From NCBI GenBank assembly GCA_000697335.1, contig JNEM01013035.1, positions 1-35,514 on the forward strand: a stretch of DNA of 35,514 nt, in the 5' to 3' direction. The stretch comes from Conidiobolus incongruus B7586 (lineage: Eukaryota). Positions 8,254 through 35,514 of the stretch are shown piece after piece (positions within the stretch are counted from its first letter, which is position 1; each line of letters opens with the position of its first letter). The notes below the pieces were generated by a model that did no database searches, was not told where the DNA came from, and saw only the letters and a list, made by a program, of their open reading frames with translations. Position numbers and translations under genes: made by a program.

Positions 8254-8958
8254 ATGCGCTTCTCTGGAGACAATATTAAAACTAACAACTCAAATTCAAT
8301 AGCTGAATTATTCTATGATAATCATTCCTTGCAGTCTGACTTTGATTCTAGTGATTCATTATCTGAACCCAACTCCATTGAATTATCAGCGATTATCGAT
8401 GCCTTGGCCAGCCCTTTGATCAATACCAATTTAACTAATAGTCAAAAGAAAAAATGCCCTAAAATTCCTCGTCCACCAAACTGCTTTATAATATATCGAA
8501 AATATATTTCTGATATTTTAAAATTGCAGCAAAACTATAACTGTCATACCCATAATACATCCAAAATTGCGTCCATAATGTGGAAAAATGAACCTGAAGA
8601 TGTTAAAATTCACTTTCAACGACTAGCCAAAAAATTAAAGCGTGAACATCAGAGGAAATATCCAGATTACAAATATCAGCCCAAGAGAGAAAAAACGAGA
8701 GAGACTAAAAATACAAAAGCTCTAAGCACAAGTAAACAAGCCACCACGCCGACTAATAACCCTATTGAGTTTAACAACACTCAATATCCAAATCCCCAAG
8801 AATTCAATTATGTTTATCAGAATCACCTCTCATACCCTATACAATTTACCATTTATAATCCGCAATTCGCTAATCAGATGAATTACAGTAATCCTTCAAA
8901 TCTTAACAATTTCATTTGTTTTGTTCCTTATACTCAACCCTATGATACATTTTTATAA
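8254..8958 (+). CDS. MATA_HMG/Sox-type HMG-box transcription factor (about 234 aa, single exon)
   Basis: HMG box KIPRPPNCFIIYRK...SKIASIMWKNEPEDVKIHFQRLAKKLKREHQRKYPDYKYQPKR at about 8461-8689 has the PRPPN-F, W and YPDYKY-P signatures of sequence-specific HMG boxes. First in-frame ATG is 8254 (the track start at 8170 is TTG). The C-terminal tail is rich in N/Q/P/Y. Confidence 0.9.
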   Translation: MRFSGDNIKTNNSNSIAELFYDNHSLQSDFDSSDSLSEPNSIELSAIIDALASPLINTNLTNSQKKKCPKIPRPPNCFIIYRKYISDILKLQQNYNCHTHNTSKIASIMWKNEPEDVKIHFQRLAKKLKREHQRKYPDYKYQPKREKTRETKNTKALSTSKQATTPTNNPIEFNNTQYPNPQEFNYVYQNHLSYPIQFTIYNPQFANQMNYSNPSNLNNFICFVPYTQPYDTFL

Positions 8959-10125: not shown

Positions 10126-13100
10126 CTATTCGGATGGATTATCTTTAGAAATTATATCGCATAATTCCTTGAAAGTGGTAGCGTTTGCTAATACGTCAGA
10201 GCATGCAAAGTCCAATAATTGCGCAATGGAGCACTGCTTGGTTTTTTCCATCAAAATTTGGTGAGCAATATTCAAAAAATAAACCGAGTTGGGATCTTCA
10301 ACATCTTGTTCGGTTTCATATTCTTTCCTATGCCAAGCATCGATAATGCTGGGGAGATAATAACATGTGGATGTAGTACTCATGCAAGTGGATGAAATAT
10401 CGTTAGGGGAGTCAGGGGCTAAAAGTCTTGAGATCGCGCACTTGGATTCGACTTCAGAAAGAACCGATTTGTTGAGTGGGAAGAGATTAGAAAGACTCTT
10501 AGAGTTAGCTGCATTGAAATCAGTAGATGGATCAAAGGGAGATGGCATAGATATTAATTCTGTTTTCACCTGACCAATATGAATGCTATCTTCTTTGCTC
10601 TCTAAAATCGTTACCGATGATTGCACAATAGTTTCACTCGTACCATTAGGTTGATTGTTTGTAGATTCATTGCCATTGTGTTCTATACCATTAGATAACT
10701 CTCTAGACTCTTGGACATGAGAGGTTTGATCAAATGAATCTGGTTCGCCATTAGCATGACCATTTTGTCTTTCAGCCAAGGCATTTGGCTCATTATCAGA
10801 ATTTTCTACAACAGGTTCAGTTGGTGGAAACTTCTCTAATCTGGCTTCACTAACTTGCTTATATTGATCCAAAACAAATGGATATTTGCCACCCAAGTTG
10901 TGATAAATGTCATACTCTAGCTGGAGAGCTGTTTGGACTATATAGTGTCCAGGATTTTTCATGTAAATAATAATATTATTGACTATAGAATTCAAATCAT
11001 CAAGCACTTGATCGAATGTTTCATAACTGAGATCGGCAAGCTTGTCCAAGATTGTAAGTAAGCAAACGGGTTTGTATTCTGGGGGCCAAGCACCTTCATT
11101 GTACATAGGCTCGCATAAGAGCGCAAACGAGGAATCGTGGAGGCAACCATGAATCACTTGAATTAAATCCTTGAGAACTAAATCCGATCCGGTAGAGCCA
11201 TCATTTAAAATCAACGAGTTTGCAGATTTTGGGTTAGGAGGAGAAAATCTTCCTCTAAATAGGGACTCTTTATCAGGTTTTGGAAGTTTTGATGAGAAAG
11301 AAGTCTCTAGTAAATTGATTAGGAATCTAGAACGCTGCTCCTCGGATGGATGAGAATTGACCTCATGAAACTGAGCCTGTGGAGGTTGCAAAAAATCGTA
11401 GCCATAGTCTTCGGGTGTTGCATTGGACGTTACTAATAAAACTACCTGGCAGAGTGGGCTTAAATGCTTCAGATACATATTTAGAATAGATATTACTTGA
11501 GTAAAGATTCGCGGGCTACTATCAATGAAGGGAATATATATGACAGATGTGGTGAAAGCAATGGGATGCATGGGAATCGATGCAAGTTGACGCTTCAATG
11601 CTTGGGGCACTGTGATACCGTCTGATTGACGAACAAGGTCAGACGCACTTAGCGTGAGAATTCGATCAACAGCTAACTGGTTTAGAATTGCCGATCCAAT
11701 CGAAGATAAAATATAAGGCGTGGTTCCATAAAGTACAAGCGATTTAGGAAGTTGGGGAACGAGAGGTGTTACAGTAGGTGGCTCAAGGTAGGGAGCAAAC
11801 CACTGACAGCAATAGTCCACTTCAGACTGAAGTAATGCAGACTGGTAGAAAGGCAGTGGAAATACATCCATCGATAATGCACGTCTGCCTGTGGGTACAA
11901 AGGTTGCTAGAGATTGTTCAAAATGAGCTTTGGTTACTTGAAGAGGCTGGTCACTGGCTCGATTAGTCAGCGATGACTGTATCTTCGCTTGAAGCAAAGA
12001 TTCATTACACACTAACTTGATATCCGCAGGTGTATATCCGTTGGTACGTGTAGCAAGCCAGTCTATTAAGTCATTGGGAGGAGGGACAGGCCAGTTTTGT
12101 GTGATCTTACTAAATACTTCCATACGAGAATAATGATCAGGAAGAGTAAATAAGAGCTCAGTACCAAATCTACCAGGTCTTCGGAGAGCAGGATCGATTG
12201 TTTCAGGGTGGTTGGTTGATGCAATTACTACAACCCCCTCGCGTTCCACTGCACCATCCATGAGCCCAAGCAACGTTGATACCATAGCGGTCAAGTGAGT
12301 CTCTTCAGATTCAATACGTGAAGGGGCTAAAGCGTCGATTTCATCCAAATAAATAATTGATGGCGCCCATTTCCTAGCAGCTTCGAATAGCTGAGTCAAA
12401 TTCTTTTCACCATCACCATAGTATTTAGATAGAAACTCTGTGGAATTCCTGAAAAAGAAAGCCCAAGGCTTACCATTACTCGACGTATCATTTGCTAGTG
12501 CCTGAGCGACCATCGTTTTACCAGTTCCGGGAGGCCCATAGAACAAAAAACCATTCTCAGGCTTTAAATTGATAGAGTCGTACAAAGCCTTATATTTGGT
12601 AGGTAGAACAAGTGTCTGGTTCAAAGTTTGAATTTGCTTTTTTAACCCTCCGAATTGATTCCATGTTACAGGTTTCTTGTTAAGGTTAAAAGAATTCAAT
12701 CTATCACCCTCGCTTAATAACTTCAACCTGTCATCGTTAATAATTTCTAAATTATCTGGTAAAATTACATTTTTCTTGATTTTTTCAGTATCTTTCTTTT
12801 CAGTAAAACCACGAAATAGTCTTTGAAGACCTGCTTCATCTTCAAGATCATTTAATTTAGAGGGCTCATGATCTAAGTCAGATAACTGAGCTTTACTAAG
12901 ATTTTGATTATCATAATAGTTGAACATTTCAGACTCTTGTGTTCCCATCATATGTGCAATTCGAGAAGATTTTCTAAATGCTCTGATACCTGTTTTGTTA
13001 TTATTTTGTCTCGTTCTAGATCTTGTTTCGTATCGCGGAGCTATTGTAGATTCAGCTTCAGAATCTTCTTGACGATTTTTGCTTCTTAAGTTATATTTAG

Positions 13101-13407
13101 GTGAAAGAATTTGATTTTGTTTTCGCTTTTTCTTAAGTTTAACTGATTCAGGTTCAGAATAAGATTCATCATATTCAGTGAGTTCAGAATTATCATTTAT
13201 AAAGTCTGAATCTCTGCGTAGTTTTTTATGTATAATCTCCTCTTCAACTTCATCCTCTATTTCCTCTTCACTAAAATCGTCATCGTCTGATTCCGACTTG
13301 TCAGGAACAAAATCCTCATCTTTGGGATTATCCTGAACATGAAAAGTTTCCATCTCTTCTTCAGAGTTGGAAGCGGAGTCATTAGAATTATTGTGATATG
13401 GAGACAT
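10126..13407 (-). CDS. YTA7: Yta7/ATAD2-like AAA+ ATPase histone chaperone with degenerate second AAA domain and bromodomain-like region (1093 aa, single exon)
   Basis: Acidic N-terminus, Walker A GPPGTGKT, ATAD2-type AFFFRNSTEFLSKYYGDGE, Walker B IIYLDEID, STLLGLMDG, SRH DPALRRPGRF. Degenerate AAA2 (LVLYG..., VIYIPFID). Bromodomain-like PVCLLTILDKL...YETFDQVLDDLNSIVNNIIIY at about 10880-11180. Confidence 0.85.
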   Translation of the reverse strand: MSPYHNNSNDSASNSEEEMETFHVQDNPKDEDFVPDKSESDDDDFSEEEIEDEVEEEIIHKKLRRDSDFINDNSELTEYDESYSEPESVKLKKKRKQNQILSPKYNLRSKNRQEDSEAESTIAPRYETRSRTRQNNNKTGIRAFRKSSRIAHMMGTQESEMFNYYDNQNLSKAQLSDLDHEPSKLNDLEDEAGLQRLFRGFTEKKDTEKIKKNVILPDNLEIINDDRLKLLSEGDRLNSFNLNKKPVTWNQFGGLKKQIQTLNQTLVLPTKYKALYDSINLKPENGFLFYGPPGTGKTMVAQALANDTSSNGKPWAFFFRNSTEFLSKYYGDGEKNLTQLFEAARKWAPSIIYLDEIDALAPSRIESEETHLTAMVSTLLGLMDGAVEREGVVVIASTNHPETIDPALRRPGRFGTELLFTLPDHYSRMEVFSKITQNWPVPPPNDLIDWLATRTNGYTPADIKLVCNESLLQAKIQSSLTNRASDQPLQVTKAHFEQSLATFVPTGRRALSMDVFPLPFYQSALLQSEVDYCCQWFAPYLEPPTVTPLVPQLPKSLVLYGTTPYILSSIGSAILNQLAVDRILTLSASDLVRQSDGITVPQALKRQLASIPMHPIAFTTSVIYIPFIDSSPRIFTQVISILNMYLKHLSPLCQVVLLVTSNATPEDYGYDFLQPPQAQFHEVNSHPSEEQRSRFLINLLETSFSSKLPKPDKESLFRGRFSPPNPKSANSLILNDGSTGSDLVLKDLIQVIHGCLHDSSFALLCEPMYNEGAWPPEYKPVCLLTILDKLADLSYETFDQVLDDLNSIVNNIIIYMKNPGHYIVQTALQLEYDIYHNLGGKYPFVLDQYKQVSEARLEKFPPTEPVVENSDNEPNALAERQNGHANGEPDSFDQTSHVQESRELSNGIEHNGNESTNNQPNGTSETIVQSSVTILESKEDSIHIGQVKTELISMPSPFDPSTDFNAANSKSLSNLFPLNKSVLSEVESKCAISRLLAPDSPNDISSTCMSTTSTCYYLPSIIDAWHRKEYETEQDVEDPNSVYFLNIAHQILMEKTKQCSIAQLLDFACSDVLANATTFKELCDIISKDNPSE

Positions 13408-14760
13408 TATAATTTAGTTATAATTTTGGAATAATGTTACAAATAGTACTTATATCTATTGAATGGTTAAATTGTGCATTCAAGTGAATTATAAAAATGC
13501 TTAATTATGTTTACAAATTAAGTACCTTAATTAACCAATATTTAAAATCATTTTAATTCAACCAATCTTGTGGGATTTCAATCAATCATTTTATTCCCAG
13601 AATAACAATAAATATTATTATAATCATATTAAAAACAAATTGTTTATTTAACTATTATTATATACAATAGTTAATATTCAAACGACTATAATTTTAGTAT
13701 TTTTTTTTAATTTTTGAACAAAGATTTCATGTAAATTTAAATAGATTTATTATCAGAAATATAATATTATGTGAATAGAATATTTCAAAATTACTACAAT
13801 GTTATTATTATTACTATTTTCTATTATTTTTTTAATCTGACGATACTATTTCTCAAAAATGTAATATTTCAATACTTGCATTATTTAACCAATTTTCCTG
13901 AAATATAGTAACCAATTGAAAGGAATTTTAAAATTCTAGCCTACAAGACTTATTCAGGGAATAGTAACTAATCCAAACAATAATCTAAAAATAAATATTT
14001 TGATTGATATATAAGATCTAGTACTAGAATCCATTTGGAATTTTCCCTATTTGGTTCGGGTAAAATCTTTATACTTGGAAAATAATAAAAATAATAATTG
14101 CTAATGAAAGATTTTCCTATATAAAATAATAATGCACTTATATTATTTTTTGATTTAATATTTAATTAATATAAATAATTTTGATTGAATCATCATCAAA
14201 GGTATAATCAATAATCAAAACAGTCAAGTAATTTATCTAAATAATTAGATCTGTTGAATAATCTTTTGAAAAGAAATTTTGGCAAGATAATTCAAGTTCC
14301 AATTGAATTTGTTTTGAAACAAAAAATATCAGATATTGAAATAAAGTAATGTTATGAATAAATAAGAATGCATTGTTATTGGGCAATTTATACAAAGGAT
14401 TTGTGTTCTGGATAGAACAAGTAAAATAGACTGTTCAGGTGGATGGATAAATTTGTTTATAACAGATGGCACTCATTAAATGGAAAAATAGGCTATCAAC
14501 GAAGGCTGCAACCACCTCCAAATTATTAATCAATGTAACTTGAGATATACAAAAAAGGTTTCAATCGGATGATTTCATACTGATGAATTCGAAAAATGAT
14601 GAATGAAAAGAGTCATTTTAGGGAGAGTTCATTAAAATTCTCATACAACAATTACAGCAATATAAATAGTGCTCAAGACTGTATAATTACCTAAATTTTT
14701 GTATAATAACAATTTTAAAAATATTAATTATCGATATTAATTTGAATTTTTTGAAACCAA

Positions 14761-14823: not shown

Positions 14824-16122
14824 ATGATGACTTCTAACGTTGTTAAAGCAAGAACTTATAATAAATTAAATTTAAATGATGAACAATTGGCCAAATTGAA
14901 GCAAGTTTGGAAGAAGGTGTTGGACAAATTTAATAATGTAGAGCCTAAGCCTGTTGAGGAGAAGAGCTCTAGCAGCAGTGGTACTTTTGGTCGTTTTAGT
15001 TTAAAGAATATGGTTAGAATGAGTAGCTCATCATCTACTACTTCAGATCTAGATCTCAAGAAATCTGGTGAAGAGTTAAGACGTAGTATGTGGAACGTCG
15101 TACAATCCGATCACCCCGATAGTCTCGTTCTTCGTTATCTAGTTGCTCGTAAATGGAACGTTGACGACGCTGTCAAAATGTTTTTAAGCTCTCTCGAATT
15201 TTTCGATAGCGATGTACTTCACAAGGTGCAAAACGAAGGTGAAAGATGTATTCAAACCAGTCAGCTCGATAGCGGCGCGTTCTATTTCCACCAAACTGAT
15301 AAGGATGGCTATTTAACTCTTTACGTTCATGCTGCCAAAAATTTCCCATCCCAATATACTCAAGATGAGCAATTGATGTATACTTTGAATATTATGATCA
15401 CTGGTTATTTGATGCTAGGTGAATTGGGTACTATTACAGTTGTATTTGATATGAATGGATTTACTATGGCCAATTTGGTAATTAAAATTTTTTCATTAAT
15501 TTTATTGAATCTAATATTTTTTTAGGATTTGAATTATATGAAAACCTTAGCTAAATTGTTAAGCGATCAATATCCTGAAACTCTCAAAAGGGTCATTGTT
15601 CACGGAGCCCCTTGGATTTTCAACAGTAAGTTTTAGTCTTAGTGTATTCATTTAATATTGTTTGTCTAACCACTGATTATTTCATTAGCCGTATGGACCA
15701 CAATTTCTGCCTTCCTCGACCCTGTCATCAAATCCAAAGTTATTTTCACCAATGGAGACGAAATCAAAGAATACATCGAAGAATCCAAATTACCTAAAGT
15801 CCTAGGTGGTTCCAATAACTATGAGTTCAAATATGTTCCACCCTCAGAAGACGAAGTCCTCATGAAAGCTAAGGATGACCAATATGAAAAATTGGCCAAA
15901 GAAAGATCTGAACTGGTTGAGGAATTTGATCGTTTGACAGCTCAATGGATTGAGAGTAACGACGCTGAACTTAAAGCCAAGAGAGATGCTGTAGCTGATC
16001 AATTAGCAGCTAATCACCAAGCCATACACCCTTATATCCACTGTAAAAACATGTATCATCGCATCGGTGTTATTACACCATATGATAATATTAGCTGGGC
16101 CCCAGTAGCCAAGACTGAATAA
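14824..16122 (+). CDS. CRAL-TRIO/Sec14-family lipid transfer protein (Csr1/Sfh2-like), tandem copy A; exons 14824-15477, 15526-15625, 15689-16122 (395 aa)
   Basis: CRAL_TRIO_N motif HPDSLVLRYLVARKWNV, then VVFDMNGFTMANLD, YPETLKRVIVHGAPWIF, FLDPVIKSKV and LPKVLGG. Introns 15478-15525 and 15626-15688 are GT..AG with CTAAT/CTAAC branch sites, and the joined frame is open. Confidence 0.92.
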
Positions 16123-18088: not shown

Positions 18089-19377
18089 ATGATGACTTAT
18101 AACTTAGTCAAAGCTAGAACTTATAATAAATTGGAATTGGAAAAGGACCAATTAGCTATTTTGAAGCAAGTGTGGAAGAAAGTACTGAATAAGTTGAATA
18201 ATATCGAGTCAGAACCTAGCGAGGACGAAAAGAAAAATGCGAGTAATACTGGATCATTCGGCAGGTTGAGCTTGAAGAAGATGCTGAGGATGAATAATTC
18301 ATCCACGTCTGTCAACGAGTTGGAACTGAGTAAGACTGGAGACGAGTTAAAACTTAGTCTTTGGAACTTGTTGCAATCGGACCATCCCGACGCCCTCCTG
18401 ATCCGATATATCGTAGCGCGCAAATGGAATGTGGACGATGCTGCCAAAATGTTCCTAGAGTCTTTGGAGTTTTTTGACGGAGACAATTTGCGCAAGTTGC
18501 AAACTGAAGGTGAGCGATGCATCCCTAGGAGTCAATTGGATAGTGGTGCATTTTACTTCCATCAAACTGACAAAGAGGGTTATTTAACCCTCTATGTTCA
18601 CGCTGCCAAGAATTTTCCTTCCCAATATACTCAAGATGAGCAATTGATGTATACTTTGAATGTGATTACTACCAGTTATTTGATGCTCGGAGAATTGGGA
18701 ACCATTACTATTGTGTTTAATTTGAATGGGTTTACAATGGCTAATTTGGTAATTAATTTTAATATATCACTATTATCATTCTAATATTTTTATAGGATTT
18801 AAATTATATGAAAACTTTAATCCAACTATTAACTGGGAAGATACCCGAAACACTCAAGAGAGTCATTATCCATGGAGCTCCCTGGATTTTCAATAGTAAT
18901 TATCTATATGAATTCACTGTTTATGTAATTAACCATGGGTAAATAGGTGTATGGAGTATAATATCTTCATTTTTGGATCCTGTAATCAAATCCAAAGTAG
19001 TGTTCACCAATGGAGACGAAATCAAAGAATACATCGATGAAGCCAAATTACCCGTGGAATTGGGAGGATCCAATCCCTACAAATATGAATACATTCCACC
19101 TGCTGAAGGTGAGACATTATTACCTAAAGATAGTCATTATGAGCAACTAGTTCAAGATCGTAGTGAATTGGCCCAAGAATTCGAGCGTATCACCTATCAA
19201 TGGATTGAGAGTGATAATGCAGAACTCAAGTCTAAGAGAGATCAATTAGCTGACCAATTGGCGGCTAATCATCAAGCTTTGTATCCTTACATCCACTGTA
19301 AGAATATGTACCATCGACTTGGTGTGATTACTCGCTACGATCAAATCAATTGGGCATCAGTTACCAAAACTGATTAA
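18089..19377 (+). CDS. CRAL-TRIO/Sec14-family lipid transfer protein (Csr1/Sfh2-like), tandem copy B; exons 18089-18748, 18796-18895, 18947-19377 (396 aa)
   Basis: Colinear with copy A (identical block SQLDSGAFYFHQTDK.GYLTLYVHAAKNFPSQYTQDEQLMYTLN). Introns 18749-18795 and 18896-18946 are at the same codon positions and phases, and exon 2 is 100 nt in both copies. Confidence 0.92.
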
Positions 19378-28237: not shown

Positions 28238-29607
28238 ATGGTTGGTGCTACTCCCTGTCCTCCTTCAAGAAGAAAATTTGATCATGCCGTGACAGTAGTT
28301 CGTCATTTACCTACTTCATTAAAATTACAGAGTGACGACCGTTTAAAGGTGCGTATAAATATATCTTATATTTCTTTATTGTCTAATATACTTTATCTTT
28401 CCTAATAGCTTTATGGGTTATATAAACAAGCCTCGGAGGAATTTACTCCTAAAAAGAAGCCGCGAAATAAGGATTGGTTATCACAAGCCAAATGGTACTA
28501 ATAATTTCTTTTAAAATATAATAACTCAATGGCTCGGCAATTTTTTACTTACACCATATATTATTAGGGATTCATGGAAAGAAGTCTCTCATTTAACTCA
28601 AGAGGAAGCTCAAGAAGAATATGTAAGAACCCTTGTTGAGGTAACACAAACTTTAAACGTGTTTTTACTCTTAATATTAACTTTCTCACCCTAGTTTTTA
28701 AAATCCTTTCCTGAGAGGCAACAGGCTGTGGACTTGGTTTCAGGCTTGGAGAGAAGTCTTCGTCTGACAGACTTTCAACTCGGAGTGTATCCTTCCTGGC
28801 CCCGCTCTACTCCACGCACGAAACGCTTTCCAAAATCTTGTTCCGCTGAACTTAACCAAACCAAAAGAGAAGCCATCCTCCAATATTGCCGTGACTCGGC
28901 TATTTACTTGCCCACAACTGACGGTGATGGTCACGATTCTATTCTCACCGACAATCCTCTAGATTCAACATTAAACACCGACATCCTACCTGATCAATAT
29001 CCCCAATATTCCAATCAAATACATCTCATGCACAATCAAAGTTTTAATGACCCTGCTGTCCCGGAGTCACCAATATCAAATGCAACAGAAATCCCAGACG
29101 ACTGTTCTGAGGATTCTTACGCATCTTCAGACGATGGTGAGAGCCTCTCCACTGTCACCATCCGCGCAAGTAACCACAGGTATTACCGAAGCCCTGCAGC
29201 CTCAGATAGACACGACTCTGTTGATTCTGGACTAAGCTCCGAAGCTGAGCTTGCACTTGAGTCTTTACAGTCACAAGTAGCCGTTCTGAACCAAAAAATT
29301 GATCTGCTTAAGCAAGACCTCAGGCAGACCGAAGTGATTCGTGCTCCCATAAGACCGTTTTGGCAAAGATTTTCCATGGATTGGCTTAAGACAGCAGCCT
29401 TGAATTTCTTCATTGGGGTGATTATTTTGACCCAATTCTATCGTATTCGATCCGTCCATCATCGATCAATTATTGTCTATTATTTCAACTATATAAATGC
29501 TTGCTGCCGTCGGTTTATTGGTAAATAATATTCTATATACATAAAATATTATGTATTAACTATTATATTTAGAAGCAGGACGAAGACTAATATCAAAAGA
29601 TTCTTAA
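28238..29607 (+). CDS. Acyl-CoA-binding domain protein with coiled coil and C-terminal transmembrane segment (ACBD4/5, Atg37-like); exons 28238-28348, 28409-28494, 28568-28640, 28695-29520, probable last exon 29573-29607 (or stop at 29528 if the last intron is retained)
   Basis: Spliced translation KFDHAVTVVRHLP...DRLK|LYGLYKQAS...P..KDWLSQAK|WDSW...EEAQEEYV is the ACBP signature. Introns 28349-28408, 28495-28567 and 28641-28694 are GT-AG and join in frame to the 28728-29528 ORF. Coiled coil LESLQSQVAVLNQKIDLLKQDL; hydrophobic segment WLKTAALNFFIGVIILTQFY. Confidence 0.85.
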
Positions 29608-31212: not shown

Positions 31213-33024
31213 TAAAATATCAAAAATTTTAAATAAAAATTTAACATTTATTTATAAATATTATATAATAAAAATCTATTCATTGTATTTTATGCTATTA
31301 TTTCATAATATACCTAAAAAATTTTAATAAAATATAAAATTATTATAATTAGTATTTTTTTGAAAAAAAAATTAAAATTTATAATATTACTTAGTATATT
31401 TAGAAATAAAAAATTTAAGGATTTTCAAAAACAAAGTAATTAATCATTTTTTAATGATTTATATCCTTATTGAATTTCTAATAGTATTTAACCCTTTTAT
31501 GATAAAGTTGTCAATTCCCTCAAAAATAGTATTAAATTGAAGGTCAATTCAATTTCAGATGAGAATACAATAATTGATTGCTGTGTATTATCATGATGCA
31601 TTCAACATTACACATTTCTATATTGGGACAATTTCCATCAATATGCATAGTTTGGTATTATGAACACAATTGTTAGTAATTTTGAAATAAAAATTTACTT
31701 GGTTTAATGTTATGTTGCTTAATTTAGTTTTCGTTATGATATATTGGTAAGAGAATATGTTGATAAATTGTTTTGTGTAAATTATTAGTTATTATATCAT
31801 AAATTATTGATTATATATTTCTCAATTATATTTCATATTCAATATTGGTTTAAATGACCATATTAAGGTTGAAAATGACTTTGAATTAGATCATATTAAT
31901 AGACTTATTCAAATATAAACTTTGCCATAATCCTGATATAATTACTATATGATAACATTAATGGATATCTATTATTTTTGAATATGATAAAGTAGTTCAT
32001 ATTAACTTGATTACTATGAATTTAACCATTCATGAAAAGAGAAAATAATATTAACCACAATTTATTATAAGTAATAGACCCACTTCTATAAGCTTGGAAA
32101 AATACTTTTTTGATGTTCTTAGCTATTAAATCCAGAAATAGCAGCTATAAGATTATATCAAATAGCCCTTTTGAATTGATGAAAATCAATAAAATTTCAA
32201 ATGGTTTATATTCACAGACCTGGTTATATAAATAGTTTGATTCAAAAAGTAGAAAGATGGATTATATAATTCCACAGAATAAATTTTAATTTTCAATTCA
32301 GCTTATTATTAGTTAAAGGACAAATAATGACTTTATAATATCAAAAACATTTGAATCAATCATATTCCATTGAAGGTTGTATTGATTGAATCAATATAAC
32401 AGAAGTATTATAAAAAACAATACAATCAAATTATAAATTGGAAAATATATTTTATATTTGTATATTAATAAAATAACAATTATATAAATCGAAATATGAT
32501 CAATGAACTTTAATTGAATAGTGAATTATCATGCGATGGAAAGTATACAAATACTTGTGAGTTGAGATATTTGTACATTGAGCAAAATAAGCTTTAAAGC
32601 ATAATTTTTTATTGTTGTTATATGGACTTTAAAATATGAAGTTAGATTAAATAATATGGTTAATTATTATAAATGGAAAAATGAACACCATTTTTATACA
32701 ATTAAATTCCAATAGCTTATTTGAATTAAAAATACGATATATATAATAAAATACTATACAAAATATTATGGAATAAAATAATGGGATGAATTTGCTACGT
32801 GTAAATAAATAAACCAAAATAGAATTGATCAGGATGGACCAATTAGAATTAACCACCTAAATTCCTACTAATTTATTTTATAATAGTTTTCATCATATAA
32901 ATAAAGTCAATTAATTCTTATTAAAAATTTCCAACAAAAATAATCGTAGAAACAGTCCAATACAATTAGAAAACTCCAGTATTATTAAATCTGATTTATA
33001 TAATTAAGTGTATTTATATTGCCC

Positions 33025-33864
33025 ATGTTCCCCTTTAAACAGTATATTCAACCAACTTACCACTTTGATCAATTAGATAACAGCCAGGGGAACATGGGCG
33101 CTTCACAGCAACAATTATCTGAACAGCCACTAACACCTGAGAATAGCGATCAATTTTGTTCTTCTTATATGCATCATAATTCTGTTCAAACTCCACCCAG
33201 CTATGAGCCTTATTCACCAAGTCATAGTCCACCAGTATATAAGCGCAAGAGGTGCAATCGAAATAGTCAAGCCTTTCTCACTTCCAGTTCACCAAAGCGT
33301 AGCTCCACTTCTACTGATCTAAGGAAGAGGAAAAGCCTCTGCAATTCAAATTTAACAAGAGAGCATAATACTGAACTTAAGCTACAGAACCAATTATTGG
33401 AAGAGAGAATGAAGAAGTTGGAAAAGAGTAATTCTATGGCTCATGAGCGTTTGAACTATTTAATGAATCAGGTAAATAATATTCAAGCTAAGCTTTCTGC
33501 CATCTCCACAGTCCAGTCAACCAATAATACAACAACCCGTGGTTTTGAAGCGTCGGCAGCACGCTTCAAGAGGGAACACTTTTCAGATTCTCGTTCCCTT
33601 TCCCTGCAGCGGAGACTACACTCGCCTTCCAAGAAGGCGCTCGACAGGCCAGTTGGAATTGGTTTCGAAGCAACGCCAAAAGAGTTCAACCAAATATTTT
33701 CAACTTCCTTTCATTCAATCTCCAAAATTGTTCTAAGCTTATTAACCTCATATCAGTTGGGATCTCGACTATGTCTGATAATGTTAGTTATGCTGAAACT
33801 TCAGCAATCTAATCGTCTTCCCCACAATCCTGATACCTCTTCTTATTCAAGTGACTCTCATTGA
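33025..33864 (+). CDS. HAC1: HAC1/XBP1-like leucine-zipper protein; unspliced form 279 aa (stop 33862-33864), predicted IRE1-spliced form 245 aa (33025-33556 joined to 33607-33812)
   Basis: Heptad zipper L-KLQNQL-L-EERMKK-L-EKSNSM-A-HERLNY-L-MNQVNN-I preceded by basic patches PPVYKRKR and RKRK. Twin IRE1-type hairpins lie downstream of the zipper, and the unspliced frame has a hydrophobic tail. The canonical bZIP N-x7-R basic helix is not recognisable, which lowers confidence in orthology. Confidence 0.7.
   Translation: MFPFKQYIQPTYHFDQLDNSQGNMGASQQQLSEQPLTPENSDQFCSSYMHHNSVQTPPSYEPYSPSHSPPVYKRKRCNRNSQAFLTSSSPKRSSTSTDLRKRKSLCNSNLTREHNTELKLQNQLLEERMKKLEKSNSMAHERLNYLMNQVNNIQAKLSAISTVQSTNNTTTRGFEASAARFKREHFSDSRSLSLQRRLHSPSKKALDRPVGIGFEATPKEFNQIFSTSFHSISKIVLSLLTSYQLGSRLCLIMLVMLKLQQSNRLPHNPDTSSYSSDSH
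33557..33606 (+). other. Predicted non-spliceosomal (IRE1-cleaved) 50-nt intron
   Basis: 5' hairpin: TTGAAGCGT (33545-33553) / loop CGGCAGC (33554-33560) / ACGCTTCAA (33561-33569). 3' hairpin: TTTCC (33599-33603) / loop CTGCAGC (33604-33610) / GGAGA (33611-33615). Both loops fit the 7-nt CNG'CNGN consensus, giving cuts after G33556 and G33606. Confidence 0.85.
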
Positions 33865-34727
33865 ATAAATCGGGTGAGATTATTATCATATTTAATTAGT
33901 ATATGCATAGATAAGTATTTAACAACATAACGTTTGCTTTTCCCTTAATTCAAATCATTGGTTCTTCGAAATACTATCTATGATACTCCATGTTCATAGT
34001 CATTAATCTTAACATAAATATTGCTTATTTACCACAAATTGATTAATATATTAATAATTTAATCTCAACGATATTAATATATAAATTAAATAATTATCAT
34101 TCCAATACAAAATACAATTTATTAGATTTATATTGATATTCTAATATAATACAGAGCACAGGTTACTGATGATATATCCAGATACAAAAATTTTTAGCTT
34201 GAGAAAAATATTAGATATTTAACAATATCATAATTAATACTAATATAATATTTCAAATAAATATTAATGTTATTAATTTTTTTTAATATAGGTCATTTAT
34301 AATTTATAATATAAATACATCATAAAGAAAATAAATTACTTTTACTCAAATTTGCTAATATACATTTTTTTAAATATAATTTTAAATATTCGATAATCAA
34401 ATAATGCTATTTCAAGAATATGTGTTTTATATTAAATGTTGCATAATATTGAATATAAAGCTTGATTCTTGAATTAATTCACAGCATACCCTTTTGAATT
34501 ATTACCAAGATTGATGATAAAATATAATTAGTATATAATAAAAAAATACCATTTATAAGTATATTCAAGCATATCAAATATTTGAATTAATTATTACTTT
34601 GTAATTTAAATAATGAAAGTTTTTTAAGATTGAACAAAATAAATATTTTAATATATAATATTGATTTAATACTTTGTTTTATTAATAATAACTATATATA
34701 TTATTTTTAGCAAGCTTTTAATGTTTG

Positions 34728-35339
34728 AAAAATAGTTTTTATATTAAAGACTAAAATTTAATATTTTACAAACTAATTAAATTTTTTATAGAAATTCTCT
34801 TTCTTATAAGCTTGTTTTTAAGCTTTAATTAAATTAAAAGGTATTTATTTTATAATTTTATTAATTAATTTAAGTTTAAACTTTAATATATCTAAAATAC
34901 TTATATAATTAATATTATAATATTTTAATTATTTTATCAATTATTAAAAATTACTATTATTTTATAATTTAAATAATAAAAATTTTTTATGATTAAAAAA
35001 AACATTTTAATATATAATAATAAATTAATATTTTTTTTCTAATAACTTTTTACTATATTTTTAATCAAGTTTTAATACTTAAAAAATAGTTTTTTTTATT
35101 AAAGACTAAAATTTAATATTCTATAAACTAATTAAAGATTTATTAATTATAATAATTTATTATAAAAGTTTTAATTTCTAGTTATACTTTAATAAGTTTT
35201 GTTTAATAATAGCTACTCTAACTTTTTATAAGCTTTAAATAAATTATAAGGTATTTATTTTATATTTTTATTATTTAATTTTAATTTAAACTTTAATATA
35301 TATAAAACACTTATGTAACTAATATTAAAATATTTTAAT
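34728..35339. repeat. Degenerate direct (tandem) duplication in extremely AT-rich DNA
   Basis: About 34728-34791 matches about 35083-35136 (ATTAAAGACTAAAATTTAATATT), and 34821-34929 matches 35231-35339 ungapped (AGCTTTAA.TAAATTA.AAGGTATTTATTTTATA.TTTTATTA...TTTAAACTTTAATATA). Confidence 0.85.
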
Positions 35340-35514
35340 AATTCTTTAACTAAAATAAAGATGTTTTTTAGTATATTTTTTTAATTTATTAACAATTAAA
35401 AAAATAATAGTTAAAATTAATCTTTTAAATTTTAATAAGTTTTAAATATTTTTTTTAATTTTAAAATAATTTACCTAATAATAAATTATTAATTTAAATA
35501 ATATTTTATTATTA

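Follow-up and report, generated by a model that had tools for sequence, protein, structure and literature searches.

A putative HAC1-derived, IRE1-switched zipper protein with a degenerate basic region in Conidiobolus incongruus

The closest described counterparts of the gene reported here are hacA/hac-1 of filamentous ascomycetes (A. niger, N. crassa), in which a bZIP-like region lies 5' of twin CNG/CNG hairpins (the slash standing at the cut), a frameshifting intron of 20-23 nt has a length that leaves 2 on division by three, and the unspliced tail is long. According to PMC6627864, an 18-bp GC-rich inverted repeat at the 5' end of A. niger hacA blocks translation, and the block is relieved by a shift of the transcription start. 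In metazoan XBP1 the exons pair in a central stem that carries two arm stems, and the loop consensus is C(C/U)G, as given in PMC4687415; the unspliced form, XBP1u, carries the moderately hydrophobic HR2 region described in PMC4456659, and in XBP1s the basic region is intact and an activation domain is gained. Across HAC1, XBP1 and bZIP60, the N-x7-R/K element is described in PMC4891664 as strictly conserved. A functional likeness, for which no homology is claimed, can be drawn to CHOP/DDIT3, which is linked to ER stress and has an interrupted bZIP basic region: PMC5712004 describes Pro and Gly residues there that interrupt DNA binding, and a proposed role as dominant-negative heterodimer partner. 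Unlike the present gene, CHOP is a metazoan C/EBP member that is induced transcriptionally and is not spliced by IRE1, and CHOP heterodimers still bind a new site.

The gene described here was found in an early-diverging fungus, Conidiobolus incongruus B7586. Judged by sequence, it is likely to be HAC1-derived and to fall outside membership of the bZIP family, since it has the RNA features of HAC1/XBP1 substrates and fails the protein tests for a bZIP. Table 1 lists its features.

Table 1. Features of the HAC1-like locus (window coordinates)
Feature	Position	Strand	Details
Perfect 14-bp GC-rich inverted repeat	33021..33099	+	Arms 33021-33034 and 33086-33099; 51-nt loop
Unspliced ORF	33025..33864	+	279 aa with ATG 33025 (C at -3)
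Alternative start	ATG 33094	+	256 aa; A at -3, G at +4; likelier start
Degenerate basic region, first half (K73-S87)	33241..33285	+	HacA profile alignment
Ser/Thr/Pro-rich 12-codon stretch (S88-L99)	33286..33321	+	Breaks N-x7-R-x9-L spacing
Long amphipathic helix / leucine-zipper-like coiled coil (T97-I160)	33313..33504	+	AlphaFold helix, heptad table, shuffle test
Second basic cluster and hinge (R100-L110)	33322..33354	+	Sequence reading
Twin-hairpin structure	33539..33619	+	Exon-exon central stem, loop 1, intron hairpin, loop 2
Loop 1 CGG/CAGC	33554-33560	+	
Predicted unconventional intron, 50 nt	33557..33606	+	Removal shifts frame +2
Loop 2 CTG/CAGC	33604-33610	+	
Spliced-frame tail, 68 aa	33607..33812	+	4 acidic, 5 basic residues; unlike an acidic activation tail
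Moderately hydrophobic stretch, unspliced tail residues 239-257	33739..33795	+	Kyte-Doolittle 1.56; gone after splicing

The window and the HacA reference loci

The window is the whole stretch of DNA that was analysed, 35,514 nt of contig JNEM01013035.1 (assembly GCA_000697335.1). It is AT-rich, its introns are short and of the GT-AG type, and its other genes encode an HMG-box protein, an AAA-ATPase with a bromodomain-like match, two CRAL-TRIO proteins, NDOR1 and a U1 zinc-finger protein. The best 40 NDOR1 matches came from Mucoromycota, Basidiobolus, chytrids and Zoopagomycota and were at most 51% identical; a quick NDOR1 tree placed the window sequence on a long branch of unresolved position. 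This pattern suggests an early-diverging fungus, close kin of which are lacking from these matches. Exact look-up of six window proteins returned no match (0/6).

Several neighbouring features are recorded here in their own right. The tandem CRAL-TRIO paralogues (14827-16122 and 18092-19377; 394 and 395 aa) have the same two introns, and in the middle exon the second copy reads KIP against QYP in the first, with RYP in the +1 frame, which resembles a short compensated frameshift. The HMG-box gene (8254-8958; PF00505, E 3e-14) is a single exon isolated in very AT-rich DNA, and any tie to the zygomycete-type HMG genes of sex loci would be conjecture. On the minus strand, 10126-13413 holds an intronless AAA-ATPase of 1095 codons with a sub-threshold bromodomain match, which reads like Yta7/ATAD2. 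A four-exon gene at about 28280-29528 (367 aa) ends in a coiled coil and a hydrophobic segment, has one intron with the donor GTGCGT, and was read by eye as an acyl-CoA-binding protein (ACBP)-like gene. Near the window end (34700-35300), a diverged direct repeat spanning a few hundred bases was seen by eye in very AT-rich DNA, with similar blocks near 34720-34910 and 35075-35340.

Reference sequences were collected by scanning contigs with a hacA intron motif, which gave 123 loci. A HacA-type basic region lay upstream in 66 of these, 59 of which were long enough and free of stops, and 46 were distinct; one frameshifted contig was removed. The intron was 20 nt long in 42/42 reference loci, and the set was taken as filamentous-ascomycete in type for this reason. 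Column invariance in the HacA profile is partly built in, because the loci were selected with a basic-region regular expression. One hacA of fungal type, with a bZIP and a 20-nt IRE1 intron, lies on a bacterial MAG contig titled Trueperaceae (L006:1501-2081, minus strand) and is likely a fungal contaminant of that bin.

The RNA switch and the 5' repeat

The GC content of the gene is 39%, against 13-22% in the flanking DNA, and both other frames are interrupted by stops across 33229-33500. The peptides quoted in a preliminary description of this DNA all lie, correctly placed, within the single open frame. An A at -3, as at the second ATG, is found at all five neighbouring gene starts inspected.

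Two 7-nt CNG/CNGN loops on stems flank the predicted intron, and the exons pair in a central stem, as in XBP1. Among the 40 CNGCNGN sites in the window these two loops have the longest stems (11 and 5 pairs; the next has 4), and twin loops arose in 15 of 20,000 dinucleotide shuffles when stems of at least 3 pairs were required and in 2 of 20,000 when at least 4 were required. The exon-exon stem has a pair probability of 0.81-0.98, and an additional hairpin forms within the 50-nt intron; loop 2 pairs with a probability of just 0.42-0.57. Removal of the intron, whose length leaves the same remainder as in hacA/hac-1, switches the frame into a second open C-terminus. This spliced frame runs for 68 codons without a stop; when the coding exons of the window are read in their +2 frame, 0 of 2370 such stretches are open. 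In the converse test, the unspliced frame would be expected to be open 0.8% of the time. Fold prediction suggests that the exons re-pair once spliced and leave the motif inside a loop of reduced size, as in XBP1. Taken together, the twin loops and the second open frame uphold the earlier proposal of an IRE1-type splicing substrate, with splicing itself predicted, and the RNA side of the switch looks real.

The switch also departs from the described systems. Its intron of 50 nt with an internal hairpin differs from the shorter intron of hacA/hac-1, and the CGG of loop 1 is absent from the HacA 5' loops (0/46) and lies outside the metazoan consensus of PMC4687415. A search of Rfam over 32500-34500 returned no match at E<=5.

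The 14-bp repeat at the 5' end covers both candidate start codons. It is the longest of the six perfect repeats of at least 12 bp in the window (loops to about 100 nt) and the sole GC-rich one; its fold has a z-score of -3.65, with 1 in 200 shuffles equally stable, and its pair probability is about 1 in a 711-nt fold. By analogy with A. niger hacA, where the repeat is longer, it is predicted to act as a translational block; here, unlike in that gene, the repeat spans the start codons themselves. The left arm is 79% complementary to 33565-33578 of the IRE1 intron. Yeast-style pairing that joins the intron to the 5' end was considered and rejected, as its probability was 0.0 in the long fold, which favours the 14-bp repeat. 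A TACGTG at 32796, considered as an autoregulatory site, was likewise set aside, with six copies in the window and no significance.

The encoded protein

A bZIP HMM search, which the preliminary description had proposed, found no bZIP family (PF00170/PF07716) at E<=10 in the whole protein or in four sub-stretches of its bZIP-like region; as a positive control, HacA proteins matched bZIP_1/bZIP_2 in 3/3 cases. The signature N-x7-[RK]-x9-[LIMV] occurs nowhere in the protein, and N-x7-R/K-x9-L arises only when 36 nt are skipped. In single-sequence AlphaFold2 models, residues 57-96 are coil (block pLDDT 51-63) and the helix begins at T97, so that no continuous basic helix runs into the zipper; the HacA control modelled in the same way forms a continuous helix through its basic region (pLDDT 93-98). 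The earlier claim that the canonical basic helix has been lost is borne out by the missing motif, the Pfam result and the modelled coil, but its further claim that the helix has been replaced is not.

The alignments point instead to remnants of a basic region. The best ungapped fit of the HacA profile equates N80 with the invariant Asn, with R76 at -4 and R79 at -1. With this fit PPVYKRKR opens the basic region itself and does not fall on the upstream PPRKRAK motif with which this peptide had been compared. Within the first half, R76, R79, N80, A83 and S87 agree with HacA-invariant columns, while Ser at +1 and Phe at +4 replace Arg and Ala; K91 and R92 bring the ungapped total to 7 of 20 invariant columns, a count reached by 30 of 2000 composition-preserving shuffles. 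In this reading the invariant Arg at +8 has become Ser and +10 is Pro. When one insertion is allowed, the profile skips 12 residues beyond S87 and resumes at R100, which gives exactly the N-x7-R-x9-L spacing and raises the count to 9 of 20, as in 18 of 2000 shuffles. On profile score, 37 of 400 shuffles were as good in the insertion test, and HMMER does not favour the 36-nt skip, which earns 10.6 bits where deletions of 60 and 81 nt earn 15.7-16.1. The skipped form scores 12 on the profile and the HacA training rows at least 73.5, a distance that overstates the divergence of this gene's lineage, the reference being of ascomycete type alone. Statistical support for a bZIP remnant is thin. Going by these alignments, the basic region has degenerated and is divided in two, but it is neither foreign nor replaced, and because of this some residual or partner-assisted DNA binding may persist. 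The R100-L110 cluster, with K73-R76 and K91-R92, is likely to form a nuclear localisation signal.

The Ser/Thr/Pro-rich insert invites the explanation that it is no coding sequence at all: 33287-33323 would be a small spliceosomal intron lying near a miscalled base, and the mature mRNA would encode N-x7-R-x9-L. This 37-nt GT..AG pair does overlap the insert, one base out of frame, and contains a branch-like CTGAT; any 36-nt skip that starts at 33264-33288 restores the spacing, and one CRAL-TRIO copy in the window has the frameshift-like stretch noted above. The pair would work only if the assembly lacks one base, since splicing it as assembled brings a stop 10 codons on and leaves out the zipper. 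It also differs (37 nt, GTT..AAG, 46% GC) from the 12 introns located by eye in neighbouring genes, which are 43-73 nt long, end in TAG (12/12), start with GTA (11/12) and have 10-42% GC, and a second 37-nt GT..AG at 33266-33302 indicates that such pairs arise by chance. The neighbouring gene models run through with no frameshift (the 1095-codon AAA ORF and three spliced models of 367-395 aa), and the skipped form would still be degenerate and the tail still non-acidic. An assembly artefact of this kind is accordingly judged quite improbable. The preliminary description had found no convincing spliceosomal intron that would repair the basic region, and an examination of 7205 in-frame deletions agrees with it, as no motif-restoring deletion had GT/GC..AG ends. 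Two other sources were rejected: for an upstream exon, all 11 loose N-x7-R/K candidates fall in AT-rich intergenic DNA and lack bZIP character, and for an origin of the insert by tandem duplication, 914 of 1000 codon shuffles did as well and TRF gave no rows. It is possible that the insert is an old intron fixed as exon through the loss of one base.

Downstream, L118, L125, L132, A139, L146, I153 and I160 occupy the same position of leucine-zipper heptads, and the AlphaFold helix has block pLDDT values of 83-98 across residues 97-166. The zipper has a profile score of 19.8 against 9.3+/-3.8 in heptad-preserving shuffles, 11 of 2000 of which reach that value. Leucine-zipper heptads are thus present, but the likeness to HacA reported earlier has modest support (hhalign E 0.042, probability 1.25%), and BLASTP found nothing.

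At the C-terminus, the spliced tail is 6% acidic with a net charge of +1, whereas the tails of HacA (42 of 46 loci have complete ones) are 82-218 residues long, 14-21% acidic and of net charge -12 to -31. It is thus short and near neutral beside ascomycete-type HacA tails and shows no acidic activation domain of their kind, and none of 464 extra-intron options yields more than 6 acidic residues. Such a tail makes it look as though activation has been lost as well; neither the intact basic region nor the activation domain of XBP1s is evident. The hydrophobic stretch of the unspliced tail would be HR2-like by analogy with XBP1u. It was rejected as a special XBP1u-like mark, as the unspliced tails of HacA score likewise (mean 1.50). 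On this reading of the two frames, splicing would appear to take away a hydrophobic tail and to put no acidic activator in its place.

Database searches returned no relatives of the protein. Two protein searches confirmed 0 of 485 and 0 of 44 candidates as homologues, and there was none at E<=0.001 among 1.84 billion representative proteins; 0 of 582 pattern matches in metagenome contigs were confirmed as relatives, and no viral contig carried the hairpin-1 pattern. The PDB sequence search gave a weak Atg17 coiled coil alone (E 6.6), Foldseek gave no match, and Atlas scores (0.77-0.79) were in the chance range. These results, with those for Pfam and Rfam, are what would be expected of an unrelated coiled-coil gene in which the hairpins are a chance match or a site of IRE1 decay (RIDD) without a splice. 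Such a gene would have to combine by coincidence the twin loops, an open second frame, ordered bZIP remnants upstream and the 5' repeat, and we regard it as very improbable.

Origin and candidate role

Our best explanation, held tentatively, is that the gene encodes a HAC1/XBP1-derived, IRE1-switched zipper protein that acts through a bZIP partner, which it damps or redirects in the manner of CHOP. A role as dimer partner is the simplest one because an IRE1-switched protein here has a zipper and K/R clusters without a grip on DNA. In unstressed cells, the 14-bp repeat would mask the start codon, and the mRNA would be taken to the ER by the hydrophobic tail of the unspliced form. Under ER stress, IRE1 would excise 33557-33606, and movement of the transcription start into the loop of the repeat would free translation. 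The spliced protein, its hydrophobic tail gone, would reach the nucleus via the K/R clusters and heterodimerise with a bZIP protein that is intact, whether or not a HAC1 paralogue, lowering or retargeting its DNA binding as CHOP does on C/EBP. We infer each of these steps, from splicing and translation control to nuclear entry, dimerisation and inhibition.

The same features could belong to the sole HAC1 of the organism, still the driver of the UPR, in a fast lineage that remodelled its basic region so that it takes up its fold on DNA or, together with a partner, binds half-sites, the activator being the Ser/Pro/Gln-rich N-terminus or the aromatic tail. IRE1 splicing substrates described in PMC4891664 encode the UPR bZIP itself, which argues for this possibility. 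The gene also has the full regulatory kit of HAC1 (14-bp repeat and twin hairpins), and its lineage is long-branched, with an NDOR1 end branch of 1.45 and identities of 44-51% among the best 40 matches. DNA contact in the basic region follows a five-position rule (N, +3, +4, +7 and +8), and with the insert looped out four of these five positions would be kept. On the other side stand the missing N-x7-R/K, strictly conserved according to PMC4891664, the Pro within the insert, the Phe at +4, the score of 12 against at least 73.5 in the HacA training rows, and the non-acidic tail; a sole, working HAC1 is therefore considered unlikely.

A spare HAC1 duplicate in early decay, without function, would explain why the DNA-binding and activation parts both look lost, and the genome does retain duplicates, as the two tandem CRAL-TRIO genes illustrate. 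As read from the sequence, however, the damage is selective: it lies only in the effector parts, DNA binding and activation, while the 14-bp repeat, the 9-bp stem, the two loops and the two overlapping frames have stayed whole. When random substitution was simulated at a level of 5%, all five of these features survived in 2% of runs; at 10%, none of 4000 simulations kept them. These levels may differ from the real amount of change since any duplication. Neutral decay is disfavoured because random substitution would have damaged the RNA stems or the frames. In addition, the GC content of the gene stands above that of its flanks, its GC3 (0.37) falls inside the range of five neighbouring exons (0.31-0.39), and decay is regarded as improbable.

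If the gene is an IRE1-switched dimer partner, it may have company. More doubtful is the proposition that IRE1 has two targets in this early-diverging fungus, one a normal HAC1 and the other a zipper-only derivative that the cut turns from a membrane-directed form into a nuclear inhibitor. The HacA profile, run over six frames of the 35-kb window, found nothing better than E 2 and so no second bZIP there. In the open-access literature no case of an IRE1-spliced, non-DNA-binding partner was found; the species tables of a 2011 survey of Hac1/Xbp1 introns may bear on novelty.

For lineages that dropped the HAC1 branch, PMC13703316 describes loss of the gene (S. pombe) or of the splice (N. glabratus). 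In the present gene the opposite pattern appears, with the RNA switch kept and activator functions lost. Were the gene instead the sole HAC1, it would test how far the N-x7-R/K rule bends. If there are two targets, a brake or retargeting subunit would be built directly into the IRE1 switch. Should the dimer-partner role hold, the reach of IRE1 splicing would extend to a dimer partner that does not bind DNA, in fungi a functional parallel to CHOP.
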